Virus record (IMG/VR): IMGVR_UViG_2657244940_000011 | Strand: one strand, 5' to 3' | DNA from: a virus | Taxonomy: Duplodnaviria; Heunggongvirae; Uroviricota; Caudoviricetes | Length of the DNA stretch: 5,563 nucleotides | Shown here: positions 42 through 5,563 of the stretch, in pieces | How positions within the stretch are numbered: the first letter of the stretch is position 1 | Layout: the number at the start of each line of letters is the position of its first letter | The notes under the pieces: generated by a model | Told to the model about the DNA's origin: nothing | Seen by the model: only the letters and a program-made list of their open reading frames with translations | Databases searched by the model: none | Position numbers and translations under genes: made by a program

Positions 42-197
42 ATGAAGCAGCAAAAGGCGATGTTAATCGCCCTTATCGTCATCTGTTTAACCGTCATAGT
101 GACGGCACTGGTAACGAGGAAAGACCTCTGCGAGGTACGAATCCGAACCGGCCAGACGGAGGTCGCTGTCTTCACAGCTTACGAACCTGAGGAGTAA
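42..197 (+). CDS. hokD: Hok/Gef-family type I membrane toxin (51 aa; HokD/RelF-like)
   Basis: Translation MKQQKAMLIALIVICLTVIVTALVTRKDLCEVRIRTGQTEVAVFTAYEPEE has the Hok signature (hydrophobic helix, TRK-LCE-R-R-G-EVA-F-AYE) and matches my recollection of HokD/RelF. AAGGAG at 27-32 sits 9 nt before ATG 42; TAA stop at 195-197. The ORF track starts at in-frame GTG 15, which would add a 9-aa extension and is judged less likely. Confidence 0.85.
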   Translation: MKQQKAMLIALIVICLTVIVTALVTRKDLCEVRIRTGQTEVAVFTAYEPEE

Positions 198-601: not shown

Positions 602-1096
602 TTGTACTCTATGGCTGAGATTGTTGAAGGAGTGCATTACCTTACGGTTGATGATCTTGTTGAAATCAATCATTCCCTAATTGAATTACAGACGCCAGAT
701 GAGCCCGTTGGTGTTCTGAGTCCAGATAACTTAAGTTCTTCTCAGGCCCGTCCCAGCATGGTTCGATGGTATGAACAGACTAATGACATGTTTGTACTGG
801 CATCGGTATTGATTGAAAGTCTGATTCAGAATCATCCGTTTGCTAATGCGAACAAACGAACAGCTATGATGGCTGGTTACGTCTTCTTGTTGTTGAATGG
901 CTATGAGTTAACAGCACCAGGCGATGAAATCGTGGAAATGGCAGAGGGACTGGCCTGCAAAACCTATACTCGAGAAGATCTCGAGAACTGGTTGTGTTAT
1001 TGGTCTCGCGCGTATGACAGCCGGGAATTATGTAAAACAAGCGCAACTATTGTTTTGTATGAAACTATCAAGCTTAAAATAGAACAGCAAAACTAA
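602..1096 (+). CDS. Doc (death-on-curing) / Fic-family toxin
   Basis: The product contains HPFANANKR (nt 833-859), which fits the Doc variant of the Fic motif H-x-F-x-[DN]-[AG]-N-K-R. Start is TTG 602 or ATG 611 (both in frame; upstream in-frame TGA at 593-595); TAA stop at 1094-1096. Confidence 0.8.
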   Translation: MYSMAEIVEGVHYLTVDDLVEINHSLIELQTPDEPVGVLSPDNLSSSQARPSMVRWYEQTNDMFVLASVLIESLIQNHPFANANKRTAMMAGYVFLLLNGYELTAPGDEIVEMAEGLACKTYTREDLENWLCYWSRAYDSRELCKTSATIVLYETIKLKIEQQN

Positions 1097-3334: not shown

Positions 3335-3897
3335 GCGTAAATATGATATATCCGGAAATTACAGGCAAAAGCGGCGAGCATTTACGCCTAAAAACGCTGG
3401 AAGCAGTCTGGATCCAAGGGCGATTACGGATGTGGGGGCGTTGGTCGTATATTGGCGGCGGTAAGACGGGAAATATGTTCAACCAATTACTGACCTCTAA
3501 AAAGCTGACAAAAACGGCAATTAACGAGGCGCTCCGGAGGATGAAAAAAGCTGGTCTGGACAAACCTGAACTTGAGGCTTTTTTGCGGGATATGATCAAC
3601 GGCAATCAAAAAAGCTGGCTGGCACATTGTACCGATTCAGAGGCGTTAATAATCGACAGGGTTATTGGCGAAGTCCTGGCAGGCTATCCCGGGCTGCTCA
3701 ATGTCCTGAGTCAGCGTTATGTGGGGCGGGGGATGACTAAGCGCAAAATGGCTGAACTGCTGAATGATGCACACCCGGAATGGAGTTTAAGAACCTGTGA
3801 AAGACGCATTGAGCATTGGCTAAAGGTGGCAGAATTTATTTTGTACAAACCAATGGTTATGGCTTTTGGTATAGAGAAAAAAGTTATTGCTTTTTGA
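3331..3897 (+). CDS. Late-gene antitermination protein Q (Q21/QuuD-like family)
   Basis: GTG 3331 overlaps the rusA stop (GTGA); an alternative start is ATG 3343. The N-terminal W-G-x-W...G...LLTSKK pattern resembles what I recall of QuuD. Position after rusA and just before a short leader plus strong terminator matches the canonical Q-PR'-tR' arrangement. TGA stop at 3895-3897. Confidence 0.7.
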   Translation: MSVNMIYPEITGKSGEHLRLKTLEAVWIQGRLRMWGRWSYIGGGKTGNMFNQLLTSKKLTKTAINEALRRMKKAGLDKPELEAFLRDMINGNQKSWLAHCTDSEALIIDRVIGEVLAGYPGLLNVLSQRYVGRGMTKRKMAELLNDAHPEWSLRTCERRIEHWLKVAEFILYKPMVMAFGIEKKVIAF

Positions 3898-3976
3898 CGT
3901 AAAAACTGCTTCAATTTCGGTACGCTTCGCAAAGCCGTACCACGAGGCGAATAGCAGACATGGACATTTGAAAGAG
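3867..3976 (+). promoter_or_regulatory. Putative late promoter PR' / qut region and short leader
   Basis: Placed by synteny (Q stop to tR'). Candidate elements are an extended -10 TGgTATAGA (3867-3875), TTGACG (3894-3899) and a hairpin ggtacg(3919-3924)/cgtacc(3936-3941). No consensus -35/-10 pair could be fixed by eye. Confidence 0.3.
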
Positions 3977-3998
3977 CCCGCTTTTTGCGGGTTTTTTT
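3977..3998 (+). terminator. Intrinsic terminator (tR'-like) ending a short post-Q leader transcript
   Basis: Hairpin cccgc(3977-3981)-ttttt-gcggg(3987-3991) followed by TTTTTTT (3992-3998). Confidence 0.7.
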
Positions 3999-4139
3999 AT
4001 GCCTGAAAAACGGCACAGAACATTAAACGCGCTGGTGGTTGCGAATACCGGTCTTTCAGCTTGCTGGCTTTTCCGACAAGAGTTATTGGTATGTTACGTT
4101 AACCAGAAAATGGAAAAAGACATGCTAAAACAGTAGGAT

Positions 4140-4319
4140 ATGACCGAAACCGCCAGAGTGGTGTTTAATGAATTAAGTGCCACCGAACCGGCGACAGTCG
4201 GGGAGATTGCGCAGAATACTTACCTTTCACGTGAACGCTGCCAGTTAATACTGACCCAGCTTGTTATGGCGGGGCTGGCAGACTATCAGTTCGGTTGTTA
4301 CAGACGCCTTCAGTCCTGA
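4140..4319 (+). CDS. Small helix-turn-helix-like protein (59 aa), absent from the ORF track because it is below 60 aa
   Basis: ATG 4140 to TGA 4317-4319 encodes MTETARVVFNELSATEPATVGEIAQNTYLSRERCQLILTQLVMAGLADYQFGCYRRLQS. The segment GEIAQNTYLSRERCQLIL looks like an HTH. AGGA at 4135-4138 is only 1 nt from the ATG (poor spacing), and an in-frame TAG lies at 4134-4136. The stop codon is inside the 3' stem of a strong terminator. Confidence 0.4.
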   Translation: MTETARVVFNELSATEPATVGEIAQNTYLSRERCQLILTQLVMAGLADYQFGCYRRLQS

Positions 4320-4329
4320 AGGCTTTTTT
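4306..4329 (+). terminator. Intrinsic terminator
   Basis: Hairpin gccttca(4306-4312)-gtcc-tgaaggc(4317-4323) followed by TTTTTT (4324-4329). Confidence 0.65.
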
Positions 4330-4422
4330 ATTTGTGGTAAATGGGCGGCTGGTGGGTGTGGTGGTTGTTGCTTTCCCGTTGCTGAAAAAGAAAGCATCAG
4401 GCGATTAGCAGGGTATCAGTTA

Positions 4423-4673
4423 CCCGTTGAAATTTTTAAATACCTCACAATTCAGGCGGTTGACTGTTGTCTGGTTTGCGGGGAGTTTGTTAAAAGAAAC
4501 TGGCATGGTGAATCCCCCTGTGCGGAGGGGCAATCAGCGACTGGTGTTTTGTCACCGACCCTTATCCTTTCTGTGCGGGTTCAGGTGCTGATACTGAACT
4601 CACCGGGAGGCACCCGGCATCATGCAATGGCACATAGCGCCACTCTCCAGCCCCTCTCCGGAGGGGCTTTTCT
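4423..4673 (+). repeat. Tandem repeat unit A (~250 bp) carrying three conserved GC-rich hairpins
   Basis: Shares with unit B: cccgtt(g/a)aat at the start, ctcacaattcag (4444-4455), TTGAC (4460), gcatggtgaatccccctg(t/a)gcggaggggc (H1, stem 4515-4530), ctgaactcaccgggaggcacccggca (H2, 4594-4619, 26/26 identical) and agcccctctccggaggggcttt (H3, 4649-4670, 22/22 identical). Confidence 0.6.
4650..4673 (+). terminator. Intrinsic terminator (hairpin H3 of repeat unit A)
   Basis: gcccctc(4650-4656)-tccg-gaggggc(4661-4667) followed by TTTTCT. Confidence 0.55.
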
Positions 4674-4861
4674 GTGCCGGATACATCACAGTTTCTGGAA
4701 CCTTAGGTACTACAGTATCAGTCAGGGTGCTATATTTTCAGATGTGATGAAAGCCTGTCAGCAGGCAGGGCGTATCGGAAATGACCCAGTAGAGAAAACG
4801 TTGACTCAGATACCGGTGCTGAGTTACCGGGAAACCGGCATCACATGACCGCTATCCTTCT

Positions 4862-4889
4862 AGGCCCATCCGCTCCGGTGGGCCTTTTT
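4862..4889 (+). terminator. Intrinsic terminator preceding repeat unit B
   Basis: aggccca(4862-4868) ... tgggcct(4879-4885) with an internally paired loop (ccg-ctc-cgg), followed by TTTTT (4885-4889). Confidence 0.6.
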
Positions 4890-4906
4890 ACTGCAGAAAA
4901 CAGGTT

Positions 4907-5160
4907 CCCCGTTAAATGCTATGTTGCTCACAATTCAGTAAGTTGACAGTTGCCTGTCAGACTGGGCATTTGTTAAAAAAATTTCGCATGGTGAATCCCC
5001 CTGAGCGGAGGGGCGACTGGTGACGGTATAATCTCTGATTATCAAAACGAGAATGACGCGGGTTTAGTGGCACCGGGCTGAACTCACCGGGAGGCACCCG
5101 GCACCATGTGCATGATGATACAGATACGCGGCTTTAGCCCCTCTCCGGAGGGGCTTTCTT
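4907..5160 (+). repeat. Tandem repeat unit B (~250 bp), diverged copy of unit A, offset ~484 bp
   Basis: Same three hairpins at nearly the same spacing as unit A (H1 stem 4998-5013; H2 stem 5087-5101; H3 5137-5154), with diverged spacers. Also carries the palindrome tgacag-ttgc-ctgtca (4944-4959) and a perfect TATAAT (5027-5032). Confidence 0.6.
5137..5160 (+). terminator. Probable intrinsic terminator (hairpin H3 of repeat unit B)
   Basis: gcccctc-tccg-gaggggc followed by an interrupted T-run TTTCTT; weaker than the unit A copy. Confidence 0.4.
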
Positions 5161-5166
5161 GTGGGC

Positions 5167-5191
5167 AAAAAAAGCCCGAGTGGGTTCGGGC
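5167..5191 (-). terminator. Hairpin with A-tract on the + strand, i.e. a terminator-like structure for the - strand (or bidirectional with 5137-5160)
   Basis: AAAAAAA (5167-5173) then gcccga(5174-5179)-gtgggt-tcgggc(5186-5191); on the - strand this reads hairpin plus TTTTTTT. No - strand gene is visible downstream within the window. Confidence 0.35.
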
Positions 5192-5246
5192 AACAGCATG
5201 AGATATACATTTTTATAATCGAATGGATTTTAACCAGAATTCATAA

Positions 5247-5271
5247 GGCTGCGCAACTGCGCGGCCTTTTT
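5247..5271 (+). terminator. Intrinsic terminator
   Basis: ggctgcgc(5247-5254)-aact-gcgcggcc(5259-5266), an 8-bp stem with one G-U pair, followed by TTTTT (5267-5271). Confidence 0.55.
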
Positions 5272-5373: not shown

Positions 5374-5563
5374 ATGACATTTAAACACTACGATGTGGTC
5401 AGGGCGGCGTCGCCGTCAGACCTTGCGGAGCGACTGACACAAAAACTGAAGGAGGGGTGGCAGCCATTTGGCAGCCCTGTCGCCATCACGCCTTATACCC
5501 TGATGCAGGCCATTGCGGCGGAAGGTGATGTCACCACACCTGTGGTGGTGAAGCCGTCGGATG
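5374..5563 (+). CDS. Hypothetical late-region phage protein, 5' end only (runs off the window)
   Basis: ATG 5374 is preceded by GGAGG at 5365-5369 (4-nt spacing). The frame is open for 63 codons to the window end (MTFKHYDVVRAASPSDLAERLTQKLKEGWQPFGSPVAITPYTLMQAIAAEGDVTTPVVVKPSD...). Not in the ORF track because there is no stop in the window. Confidence 0.6.
   Translation, partial: MTFKHYDVVRAASPSDLAERLTQKLKEGWQPFGSPVAITPYTLMQAIAAEGDVTTPVVVKPSD

Follow-up and report, generated by a model that had tools for sequence, protein, structure and literature searches.

A prophage locus with three tandem STnc100-related units, probably small RNA genes, between a Q-like antiterminator gene and the late genes

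The locus described here lies in a window of 5,563 nucleotides (the whole stretch of DNA that was analyzed). It is probably a cassette of three independently transcribed paralogous sRNA genes, termed units A, B and C, of the STnc100/EcOnc05-06-27/PasD family, whose products would act in trans in an Hfq-dependent manner. Family membership, the fold and its covariation, promoter geometry, terminators and recurrence of the cassette were observed directly; functional statements on the three units rest on homology. In the model that we favor, the cassette would occupy the 'moron' site of a lambdoid prophage, between a Q-like antiterminator gene and the late genes (a nanS-p-like esterase gene, then the holin gene), and would be followed by a convergent AsxR-type anti-sRNA gene. 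Each unit would have its own sigma-70 promoter of the extended -10 type and a conserved 5′ scaffold of ~105-125 nt, in which an 8-bp closing stem beginning at +1 is predicted to enclose a hairpin (H1), a long arm and a second hairpin (H2), with the linker 3′ of H1 pairing with the arm loop as a pseudoknot. A variable, putatively single-stranded 3′ linker and an intrinsic terminator would complete the unit. Judging by characterized relatives, the RNAs would be made in the lysogen as stable species of ~150-175 nt, bind Hfq and act in trans by base-pairing. The variable 3′ linker is probably the seed, and seeds of this kind on a common scaffold would give the three units three target specificities. 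The three terminators may also add to the barrier that silences the late genes until Q-modified RNA polymerase reads through.

A sequence-only reading of this DNA had described two tandem units sharing three hairpins. When re-counted on the sequence, this similarity was confirmed. Units A and C (~4444-4676 and 4927-5163) have H1, H2 and H3 in common: H1 with its flanks is identical at 28/30 positions (4503-4532 vs 4986-5015), H2 (CTGAACTCACCGGGAGGCACCCGGCA) at 26/26 (4594-4619 vs 5078-5103; within repeat family D3 of the repeat finder, 31 nt, 97%) and H3 (AGCCCCTCTCCGGAGGGGCTTT) at 22/22 (4649-4670 vs 5136-5157; within repeat family D2, 28 nt, 93%). As had been claimed, the hairpins are nearly equally spaced, with A-to-C offsets of 483, 484 and 487 nt for H1, H2 and H3, which leaves a difference of 1 nt in the distance between H1 and H2 and of 3 nt in that between H2 and H3, and the sequence between them has diverged (46% identity in the internal spacer and 54% in the 3′ linker, compared with 92-93% in the hairpin blocks). 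Upstream of H1, the two units remain similar for a further ~60 nt, within a conserved promoter region (repeat family D1, 88 nt, 80%). Chance similarity can be excluded because a single covariance model recognizes both units (E = 2e-31 for A and 2e-38 for C). The interpretation of H3 as a terminator also held, since an intrinsic-terminator-like site was detected in each of these units; the region has 10 such sites, compared with 1.7 expected from shuffles. The number of units, however, is three rather than two. An offset of 484 nt between units of ~250 nt leaves room for a third, diverged unit, and unit B was found between A and C at ~4742-4889; repeat families D2 and D4 have weak third copies consistent with it.

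Units A and C are clear members of Rfam family RF02076 (STnc100), scoring 138.1 bits (E 2e-31) and 165.5 bits (E 2e-38), respectively, each over model positions 1-206, where membership means a score at or above the gathering score of 47 bits. The earlier reading had matched the units to no described element, which is wrong, and had named a match to a described Rfam family among the findings that would refute it; as regards novelty this refutation applies, since the element belongs to an already catalogued prophage sRNA family and is not a new class. 'Small structured RNA or riboregulator' was nevertheless the right category, and nothing in the analysis favors the 'protein-binding array' proposed beside it. 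Unit B scores 28.5 bits, below the gathering score, and by the Rfam criterion is not a member; it counts only as a diverged relative. With core model R1, units A and C score 125.2 and 107.2 bits and unit B 53.1 bits (E 2e-9). Units A and C resemble STnc100 in helices, terminator and prophage niche. The consensus helices are kept with compensatory changes, and all three units lie in a lambdoid prophage, 3′ of Q/pR′ and 5′ of the lysis genes. The displayed consensus structure of RF02076 has no pseudoknot, whereas units A, B and C each have one. STnc100, first listed in Salmonella, is a gammaproteobacterial sRNA with 11 annotated copies in E. coli O157:H7 EDL933. Weak Rfam matches to rsmX, istR, Leu_leader, Ysr49 and sn2417 fell below the gathering score and were rejected as terminator-driven chance matches. 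The parts of the three units and of the adjacent anti-sRNA gene are as follows.

4444-4502, + strand: unit A promoter region (repeat family D1, conservation stack), with a conserved CTCACAATTCAG box (4444-4455), TTGACT (4460-4465), -35-like TTGTCT (4467-4472), extended -10 TG (4488-4489) and -10 hexamer TAAAAG (4491-4496)
4503-4672, + strand: unit A RNA, STnc100 member, ~170 nt (Rfam, R1, fold, terminator scan)
Within unit A RNA: closing stem P1 4503-4510/4618-4625; H1 4515-4519/4526-4530; pseudoknot AUCAGC 4533-4538 with GCUGAU 4587-4592; arm 4577-4584/4594-4601; H2 4603-4607/4613-4617; variable 3′ linker 4626-4648; terminator 4649-4668 + U4
4728-4736, + strand: unit B extended -10 TGcTATATT (read from sequence)
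4742-4889, + strand: unit B RNA, diverged third copy, ~148 nt (weak Rfam match, R1, terminator scan)
Within unit B RNA: P1 AUGUGAUG 4742-4749 with CAUCACAU 4839-4846; H1-equivalent 4753-4757/4762-4766; pseudoknot UAUCGG 4773-4778 with CCGGUG 4813-4818; arm 4802-4809/4819-4826; H2 CCGG-GAAA-CCGG 4827-4838; linker 4847-4861; terminator 4862-4885 + U5
4927-4985, + strand: unit C promoter region (repeat family D1, conservation stack), with a CTCACAATTCAG box (4927-4938), TTGACA (4943-4948), -35-like TTGCCT (4950-4955), extended -10 TG (4971-4972) and -10 hexamer TAAAAA (4974-4979)
4986-5160, + strand: unit C RNA, STnc100 member, ~175 nt (Rfam, R1, fold, terminator scan)
Within unit C RNA: P1 4986-4993/5102-5109; H1 4998-5002/5009-5013; pseudoknot CUGGUG 5017-5022 with CACCGG 5071-5076; arm 5060-5067/5078-5085; H2 5087-5091/5097-5101; variable linker 5110-5135; terminator 5136-5155 + UUCUU
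5169-5221, - strand: AsxR/AgvB-type anti-sRNA gene, convergent (Rfam RF02703 AsxR), with its terminator at 5191-5174 + U7

A consensus promoter scan, which demands a good -35, reported no promoters for the units, and the promoter was therefore recovered from conservation instead. In an ungapped stack of 47 distinct upstream regions, information was highest at TG (-15/-14) and TAAAAa (-12 to -7), counted from the G of GCATGG. The extended -10 of unit B ends 5-6 nt 5′ of the closing stem, a geometry shared with A and C. In Salmonella LT2, RpoD binds STnc100 promoters (PMC10794520). The 5′ end published for PasD2 (NC_011601:741157) coincides exactly with the G at which the closing stem begins; from this coordinate and the promoter geometry we inferred the 5′ end of unit A, which probably coincides with the closing stem. 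With such a 5′ end, the start of the Rfam model would be promoter DNA, and the first ~29 positions of RF02076 are probably of this kind and not RNA. Northern sizes of EcOnc05 (~222 nt) and EcOnc27 (~235/247 nt) exceed the ~170 nt expected if the RNA begins with the closing stem. There may be longer isoforms, or transcription may start farther upstream, perhaps at the conserved CTCACAATTCAG box. At the other end of the RNAs, the terminators of A and C are followed by short U-tracts (UUUUC and UUCUU, respectively), which is poor both for termination and for Hfq binding.

Three helices that the sequence-only reading had missed are present in each unit, namely the 8-bp closing stem, the 8-bp arm and the pseudoknot. 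RNAalifold, run independently, returned the same nested helices (P1, H1, arm and H2). In a MAFFT alignment of 35 distinct cores, 94.3% of cells were paired and 16 pairs had changed on both sides, a value reached by 0/500 shuffles, with 37-45% pairing in slid controls; in a model-fitted alignment of 50 distinct sequences, 97.8% of cells were paired, and slid controls over both alignments gave 37-50%. Covariation sits in the closing stem, the arm (7/8 pairs in the 35 MAFFT-aligned cores) and the pseudoknot (6/6) rather than in H1 and H2. H1 is nearly invariant, its pairs with double changes numbering 0/5 in the MAFFT alignment vs 3/5 in the model-fitted one, where they come only from diverged copies fitted to the model. 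H2 is conserved as sequence, with zero compensatory changes among 35-50 distinct relatives. The notion of conserved structure with freely drifting spacers, for which a search for compensatory changes had been proposed, is thus borne out in part: the spacers have diverged and the three additional helices covary, but H1 and H2, the hairpins on which the notion had been built, are conserved as sequence. Unit B is structurally intact, and when it is compared with A and C its P1 and H1 show compensatory changes.

The pseudoknot partners switch together by subtype (AUCAGC/GCUGAU, CUGGUG/CACCGG, AAUGAUC/GAUCAUU and CUGGCU/AGCCAG, with AUCAGU/ACUGAU in locus L205). Because the MAFFT alignment places the unit C class one column out of register at the pseudoknot, this helix was scored alignment-free as well; when each strand was compared with its own and with swapped partners, 1/720 permutations, the identity, attained the observed value. 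Neither a pseudoknot nor tandem cassettes are mentioned in the papers that we read. Viral contigs were searched with a 14-base pattern (CATGGTGAATCCNCC), and the roughly 1/4 of unique matches that were due to chance were filtered out; in 596 Gb of genome contigs the same pattern gave only chance matches, in unrelated phyla.

The window encodes, according to Pfam, DUF1133/Phage_antitermQ, RusA, DUF968 and Hok proteins and the start of a DUF1737 (NanS-p-like) ORF at 5374. An identical locus in E. coli JNEC-KY179 continues with SASA esterase, DUF1378, DUF826, holin and lysozyme genes, and the lambdoid-prophage setting that had been read from the sequence, with Q on one side and the late genes on the other, was thereby confirmed. 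In E. coli ATCC 11775, the cassette is directly 3′ of tRNA-Ile, tRNA-Arg and tRNA-Arg; strain ABU 83972 carries the cassette as well. Unit B is present in 673/5426 E. coli genomes, and in every case that was checked it has canonical copies on either side. About 12% of complete E. coli genomes have the X-B-Y triple cassette. The anti-sRNA gene at 5169-5221 scores 63.0 bits with RF02703 (AsxR), equal to the gathering score of 63, and 43.4 bits with AgvB, which is below the gathering score. The unit C terminator (5136-5155, +) faces this convergent gene (-), 5′ of the DUF1737 ORF, so that unit C and the AsxR-like gene form the 'dyad' described by Tree et al. (2014).

Among the known relatives, EcOnc27 (= sRNA103), EcOnc05 and EcOnc06 of EHEC Sakai/EDL933 (Tree et al., 2014; Gruber and Sperandio, 2015) belong to the same family as units A and C; like the relative PasD, they have been validated by Northern blotting and through Hfq. 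Their Northern probe targets fall inside STnc100-family cores or tails, and the Sakai Sp5 copy 3′ of stx2B scores 110 bits with the core model. As with unit C, their partner is a convergent AsxR/AgvB-type anti-sRNA, and both lie in the moron site 3′ of pR′. They differ from the window units in the internal variable region and the 3′ linkers, and none of the three Northern probes matches the window. In addition, the window is devoid of stx genes, and its forward units number three instead of one. EcOnc27 and other Stx-phage sRNAs are bound by Hfq in CRAC experiments (PMC4104026, PMC7873438); the EcOnc27 peak at 1268411-1268490 was left out here, as the 2014 coordinates may not fit NC_002695.2. 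STnc100_4 of EDL933 has been confirmed by Northern blot (PMC5331693), and the mechanism of sRNA103/EcOnc27 has been described as unclear.

PasD1 and PasD2 of EPEC E2348/69 (Pearl Mizrahi et al., 2021; Zhu, Shabalina and Storz, bioRxiv 2026) are abundant RNAs for which RIL-seq has yielded targets. In the chimeras, the PasD fragments come from the final ~50 nt, and a predicted seed, CCUUGUGAG, is located just 5′ of the terminator (PMC8550237). Hfq-dependent stability was reported from Northerns for the five Pas sRNAs (PMC8550237), but Hfq dependence looks weaker for PasD, since PasD levels changed little in an hfq mutant (PMC8550237). The PasD scaffold is homologous to that of the window units (GCAUGGUGAAUCC..., arm, GGGAGG, covarying pseudoknot), and the RNAs are similarly 172-173 nt long, with a 5′ end at the closing stem, and lie upstream of a sialate-esterase gene. 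The homology is confined to the scaffold: PasD1 and PasD2 score below the RF02076 gathering score (41 and 38 bits), their H2 is rearranged, their long U-rich tail with the CCUUGUGAG seed has no counterpart in the window units, and the window does not contain the sequence to which the PasD Northern probe is directed. PasD copies are also reported as dispersed, whereas the window units are in tandem.

Tandem sibling sRNAs such as PrrF1/PrrF2 of Pseudomonas, OmrA/OmrB and Qrr1-5 are adjacent paralogues, each with its own promoter and terminator, that share conserved parts and differ in others. They have no sequence relation to the window units and conserve the seed, whereas the window units conserve the 5′ scaffold and vary in the putative seed. 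We know of no validated target for any STnc100 member. A review lists no function for STnc100, and the Zhu, Shabalina and Storz preprint cites PrrF1/PrrF2, OmrA/OmrB and Qrr1-5 as comparators.

Alternatively, the units may affect the late operon mainly in cis. They would then serve as stacked terminators or insulators, or as structures for processing or stability of the Q-antiterminated late mRNA, with the sRNAs as by-products. Consistent with this, the + strand has six intrinsic-terminator-like hairpins from the Q-like gene to the DUF1737 ORF (~3969-3999, 4306-4323, 4649-4668, 4862-4885, 5136-5155 and 5245-5268), and the position of the STnc100 family is invariably 3′ of pR′ and 5′ of lysis genes. 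We nevertheless consider it unlikely. A likely tR′ is already present directly 3′ of the Q-like gene, each unit has its own strongly conserved promoter at the canonical distance from the closing stem, and a covarying, pseudoknotted scaffold of ~120 nt is superfluous for a terminator. Moreover, relatives are abundant discrete RNAs in uninduced lysogens and have partners in trans.

The scaffold could also be a sensor, that is, an aptamer-like or protein-binding domain that governs whether the terminator 3′ of it forms or the seed is exposed, in the manner of a riboswitch, possibly while the RNA also acts in trans. An invariant, multi-helix pseudoknotted core whose junction and loop nucleotides hardly vary, with a variable linker and an intrinsic terminator behind it, does look like an aptamer with its expression platform. 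Units A and C have perfect complementarity between the 3′ strand of H1 (GAGGGGC) and the 5′ strand of the terminator (GCCCCUC) (inverted repeats I3 and I6), and complementarity of this kind occurs in 23/47 distinct tails, compared with 2% of shuffled ones. It is missing, however, in the other half of the tails, including those of PasD and unit B, and antiterminator pairing between H1 and the terminator was therefore rejected as a general rule and kept as a minority hypothesis. None of the 13 Rfam matches to the window at E <= 1 is to a riboswitch family, the ligand or binding protein would be one not yet known, and a unit is followed by the convergent sRNA gene or the next unit rather than by an ORF to regulate. 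Taken together, these points make a sensor quite improbable, somewhat more so than action in cis.

Only a slight chance remains for a protein-coding or dual-function element, in which GGGAGG of H2 would serve as the Shine-Dalgarno sequence for an AUG in the 3′ strand of the closing stem and direct synthesis of a small peptide. GGGAGG followed by AUG is conserved, ORFs are present (41 aa at 4622-4747; 14 codons in PasD2), PGAP calls 'hypothetical protein' over the region in some genomes, and some EDL933 STnc100 copies have a ribosome-footprint-to-RNA ratio of up to 3.2. Other EDL933 copies, however, have ratios of 0.04-0.6, unit B has no GGAGG, and the AUG is accounted for by the covarying closing stem. 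Neither the length nor the sequence of the ORFs is constant from unit to unit, and the ORFs continue across the terminator hairpin, which would leave a terminated RNA without a stop codon; core lengths lie between 104 and 130 nt and do not differ by multiples of three. The 195-aa ORF at 4261-4848, the 54-aa and 41-aa ORFs and the small SD/AUG ORFs were rejected as coding because they are not conserved in length and extend across terminators, and because the covariation is the kind seen in RNA. This agrees with the earlier view of the units as structured non-coding RNA genes rather than coding duplications. Descent from degenerate tRNAs or tRNA-like elements of the ileZ-argN-argO cluster, found at the same site in Stx phages, is effectively refuted, despite the shared niche (the cassette adjoins tRNA-Ile/Arg/Arg in E. 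coli ATCC 11775) and a four-way-junction core with H2 set against the 3′ strand of the closing stem, much as a T-arm adjoins an acceptor stem. ARAGORN found 0 tRNA or tmRNA genes in the window, Rfam tRNA models gave no match at E <= 1, the stem and loop sizes are not those of a cloverleaf (the closing stem has 8 bp, the H2 loop 5 nt and the variable insert 30-45 nt) and there is no CCA or discriminator context.

Within the favored reading of the units as trans-acting sRNA genes, the nearly invariant pseudoknotted scaffold of ~120 nt exceeds what a simple base-pairing sRNA needs, which indicates that part of the biology is missing from the sRNA explanation. A role in stability, Hfq presentation or processing is possible. 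More tentatively, and with a fairly low probability, the scaffold may itself be a functional domain, a binding site for a phage or host protein or a small molecule or a module for processing or protection that fixes the fate of the seed. If so, STnc100/PasD RNAs would be modular regulators composed of a scaffold plus an exchangeable seed, which prophages shuffle and stack in cassettes with as many as four units. Few bacterial sRNAs are annotated as often as STnc100, which adjoins Shiga toxin genes, and sequence variants overlapping it have been linked to the outcome of haemolytic uraemic syndrome. The element was already known as an sRNA family; the pseudoknot, 5′ end, modularity and cassette provide handles on its conserved part, and their residual value for the field is modest but real. 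As for modularity, one locus (L221) combines a unit C core with a unit A tail and another (L141) a unit A core with a unit C tail, and judging from these sequences scaffold and tail recombine independently of each other.

Direct comparison within the window bears out the two blocks with three common GC-rich hairpins on which the sequence-only reading was built. The first hairpin (H1) and its flanks are identical at 28 of 30 positions (4503-4532 and 4986-5015), the second (H2) at 26 of 26 (4594-4619 and 5078-5103) and the third (H3) at 22 of 22 (4649-4670 and 5136-5157). Their spacing is nearly equal in both units, with offsets of 483, 484 and 487 nt, and the sequence between them has diverged (46% identity in the internal spacer, 54% in the 3′ linker). 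H3 was correctly taken as a terminator, as an intrinsic-terminator-like hairpin is found in units A and C; the 1.76-kb region has 10 such sites, compared with 1.7 expected from shuffles. The statement that the units match no described element was wrong, however, since in an Rfam 15 scan of the window both score far above the gathering score of RF02076, STnc100 (47 bits), each over all 206 model positions: unit A with 138.1 bits (4474-4679) and unit C with 165.5 bits (4957-5166). A third, weak STnc100 match (4718-4891, 28.5 bits) is under the gathering score. Chance similarity of the units is excluded by the covariance-model E-values. The proposal of a functional structured RNA was thus right in kind and its description accurate, but both the family to which the element belongs and its genomic niche had been described before; a match to an existing Rfam family had itself been named as a finding against novelty, and the element is not novel.

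RNAalifold, applied to 35 distinct cores (the conserved 5′ part of the RNA), predicted an 8-bp closing stem (P1), H1, an 8-bp long arm and H2. In the MAFFT alignment of these cores 94.3% of cells were paired and 16 pairs had changes on both sides, a number reached by 0 of 500 shuffles; slid controls gave 37-45% pairing. The double changes fell in the arm (7 of 8 pairs) and P1 (3 of 8), and none in H1 or H2, which in this alignment are conserved as sequence. The idea that structure is kept while spacers drift therefore holds for the spacers but not for these two hairpins. In a model-fitted alignment (109 hits, 50 distinct), which is biased towards the structure of the model, 97.8% of cells were paired, with double changes at 8/8 pairs of the arm, 5/8 of P1, 3/5 of H1 and 0/5 of H2. 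The scaffold of ~120 nt is almost invariant, including the whole of H2 and the GAAUCC junction. In one relative, the IMG/VR prophage locus L211, the arm is fully compensated (GGGACGCUG/CAGCGUCUC), and tRNA-like sequence comes after this copy. The compensatory changes anticipated by the sequence-only reading were found in the arm, in P1 and in a pseudoknot, though not in H2. In this pseudoknot, the loop of the arm is complementary to the 6-9 nt that directly follow H1 on its 3′ side, and both sides co-vary between subtypes:

4533-4538 with 4587-4592, plus strand: unit A, AUCAGC/GCUGAU
5017-5022 with 5071-5076, plus strand: unit C, CUGGUG/CACCGG (CACCAG in relative L201)
4773-4778 with 4813-4818, plus strand: unit B, UAUCGG/CCGGUG
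Further subtype: AAUGAC/GUCAUU
PasD2: AAUGAUC/GAUCAUU
L211: CUGGCU/AGCCAG
Relative L205: UAUCAGUAC/GUACUGAUA, a C-to-U change matched by a G-to-A change

Double changes were present at 6 of 6 pseudoknot pairs even with the imperfect MAFFT register, and in an alignment-free test with one representative per class the true assignment alone among 720 permutations reached the observed complementarity. The pairing is absent from the Rfam RF02076 consensus line, and is not mentioned in a 2026 preprint on PasD and STnc100 or in the other literature reviewed.

Between units A and C lies a diverged STnc100-like gene, unit B (RNA at ~4742-4889, plus strand), which keeps every element of the fold in different letters. 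Its closing stem is AUGUGAUG/CAUCACAU, compared with GCAUGGUG/CA(U/C)CAUG(C/U) in units A and C; its H1 equivalent is GCCUG-UCAG-CAGGC, its arm UGACUCAG/CUGAGUUA and its H2 CCGG-GAAA-CCGG, all helices being retained via compensatory changes, and it has its own terminator with U5. With the core model built in this analysis its score is 53.1 bits (E 2e-9). Among 5426 complete E. coli genomes, 673 carry unit B, which has two variants, ~99% and ~90% identical to the window copy, and was flanked by canonical copies on both sides at every locus checked (the window, L001, L133, L145, L146, L157, L164, L171, L209, L212, L220, L223, L246 and L247).

When 47 distinct upstream regions were aligned on the G of GCAUGG, conservation was highest at TG (-15/-14) and TAAAAa (-12 to -7), which by sequence is a canonical extended -10, with TTG(T/C)CT 17-18 bp further upstream; the unit B counterpart at the same place is TGcTATATT. 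The published 5′ end of PasD2 (NC_011601:741157) is exactly the G of GCAUGG that opens the closing stem, and we therefore placed the 5′ ends at ~4503, 4742 and 4986. With these probable 5′ ends, the predicted RNAs are ~170 (A), ~148 (B) and ~175 nt (C), and the Rfam model would cover promoter DNA with its first ~29 positions. The Northern sizes of EcOnc06 (~177 nt) and PasD (~172 nt) agree with these lengths; those of EcOnc05 (~222 nt) and EcOnc27 (~235/247 nt) are longer. Longer isoforms are possible, perhaps starting from a conserved CTCACAATTCAG box (4444-4455 and 4927-4938, plus strand; also in the Sakai prophage Sp5) that precedes the closing stem by ~50 nt. This box might serve as the -10 of another promoter further upstream, and would then account for the ~222-247 nt EcOnc05/EcOnc27 bands.

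STnc100 is among the most often annotated bacterial sRNAs, with no function given in a review. EDL933 has 11 annotated copies, one of them Northern-confirmed (PMC5331693). In eight Sakai prophages, Tree et al. (2014) described "convergent sRNA pairs" that bind Hfq and lie 3′ of pR′, such as EcOnc27 facing AsxR and EcOnc06 facing AgvB (PMC4104026, PMC7873438). The Northern probe targets of EcOnc05, EcOnc06 and EcOnc27 fall inside STnc100-family members (36, 7 and 2 loci, respectively), and these RNAs therefore belong to the family. The EPEC RNAs PasD1 and PasD2, ~172 nt long, are abundant, and RIL-seq has given targets for them; PasD was Northern-verified and is one of five Pas sRNAs reported to be Hfq-stabilised (PMC8550237). 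The 2026 preprint makes PasD1 and PasD2 structural relatives of STnc100, and in our hands they matched the Rfam model weakly (41 and 38 bits).

The gene order in the window is Hok, Fic/Doc, DUF968, RusA, DUF1133/Phage_antitermQ, a 59-aa ORF, the array and the start of DUF1737:

42-197, plus strand: Hok/Gef ORF of a hok/sok-type toxin locus at the left edge (1-300)
602-1096, plus strand: Fic/Doc-family protein, 164 aa, preceded by a small ORF (365-592)
3343-3897: DUF1133/Phage_antitermQ (Q-like) protein
3895-4000, plus strand: structured ~100-nt stretch directly 3′ of the Q-like gene, ending in a very strong terminator
4140-4319, plus strand: 59-aa ORF between the Q-like gene and the sRNA cassette, with its own terminator (4306-4323)
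5169-5221, minus strand: AsxR/AgvB-type anti-sRNA gene, convergent with unit C
5245-5268, plus strand: strong intrinsic-terminator-like hairpin (10 bp, 7 GC, then TTTCG) between the AsxR-like gene and the DUF1737 ORF (start 5374)

A JNEC-KY179 (E. coli) prophage carries the same DNA at 99.8% identity, and the genes that come next there encode a SASA-family sialate esterase, DUF1378, DUF826, holin and lysozyme. The array occupies the "moron" site, which is bounded by Q/pR′ and the lysis genes and in Stx phages holds stx; in Sp5, ~100 nt separate stx2B from a family member on its downstream side. The AsxR-like gene scores 63.0 bits, exactly the gathering score of AsxR. Its conserved 3′ part is intact, and its target may differ because the 5′ variable, target-defining region (CGAUUAUAAAAAUGUA) departs from the AsxR consensus. 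Given that the EcOnc RNAs of the published pairs belong to the STnc100 family, unit C and this gene are one of the published "dyads".

Three paralogous RNA genes of the same build thus make up the cassette, and a convergent anti-sRNA gene comes after them. In each, a conserved promoter precedes a covarying scaffold with a pseudoknot, to which a variable linker and a terminator are attached. Judging from relatives, the RNAs would be transcribed by sigma-70 polymerase in the lysogen, as suggested by RpoD ChIP-exo in Salmonella and by expression data (PMC10794520, PMC5331693, PMC8550237), would associate with Hfq, and would pair with targets via the single-stranded segment ahead of the terminator, which in PasD contains the seed and the RIL-seq fragments (PMC8550237). 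Since it is this segment that varies, the cassette would offer three specificities on one scaffold. The C/U-rich linkers of units A and B (CUCUCC, UCCUUCU) would, speculatively, suit pairing with ribosome-binding sites. By the same analogy, the terminators may add to the barrier ahead of the late genes, through which Q-modified polymerase would read. Alternatively, the core-plus-terminator layout suggests a riboswitch-like sensor, as does the perfect complementarity of the H1 3′ strand GAGGGGC to the terminator 5′ strand GCCCCUC (4526-4531 with 4650-4656 in unit A, 5009-5014 with 5137-5143 in unit C). However, this complementarity occurs in only 23 of 47 distinct tails (compared with 2% of shuffled tails), and no regulated ORF follows directly. 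The complementarity could stand for an alternative pairing of antiterminator type or simply for a common origin of the hairpins. If the element acted purely in cis, as a stack of terminators or a structure in the late mRNA, neither the dedicated promoters nor the discrete RNAs that are abundant in relatives would be accounted for. Coding is unlikely: the closing-stem AUG lies 11 nt after the GGGAGG of H2 (4608-4625, 5092-5109), and ribosome footprints on some EDL933 copies (RIBOseq footprint-to-RNA ratios 0.04-3.2; PMC5331693) leave a small doubt, but the ORFs (e.g., 4622-4747) are unconserved and cross the terminator, with one and the same frame in each of the three units, and core lengths differ by non-multiples of three. 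An origin from degenerate tRNA genes is excluded, as ARAGORN finds no tRNA in the window and the Rfam scan is also against it.

Of the 5426 complete E. coli genomes, 344 contain the 1041-nt array with a coverage of ≥80%; in the type strain (L247) the cassette follows tRNA-Ile-Arg-Arg. Other arrays, in IMG/VR prophage loci, have four tandem copies (L130) or two adjacent ones (L201), and sequenced phage genomes carry one copy each (338 records). Sequence comparison indicates that family cores and tails are mosaic, scaffold and tail apparently recombining as modules: of the IMG/VR loci, L221 joins a unit C core to a unit A tail, and L141 a unit A core to a unit C tail. This recombination, the pseudoknot, the probable true 5′ end and the recurrent cassette of unit B between two canonical copies are possibly worth passing to specialists.

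Elsewhere in the window, the 3895-4000 stretch, closed by a terminator with a 13-bp stem and U7 (z = -3.5), has no Rfam match and is a candidate pR′-tR′ short transcript, comparable with lambda 6S RNA or StxS. The 59-aa ORF, labelled a hypothetical protein in the matching genome, has a weak winged-helix (TrmB-like) match below the cut-off (E 0.0017). At the left edge, a sok antisense match (1-47) is 5′-truncated and below the gathering score, and a weak isrK-like match (206-287) terminates in a terminator. The Fic/Doc protein and the small ORF before it may form a Doc/Phd-like toxin-antitoxin pair in the prophage early-right region. A promoter-like motif, TGgTTAAAAT, lies upstream of the AsxR-like gene (~5228-5237, minus strand), and the 5245-5268 hairpin recurs in Sp5 (L245, 808-835).
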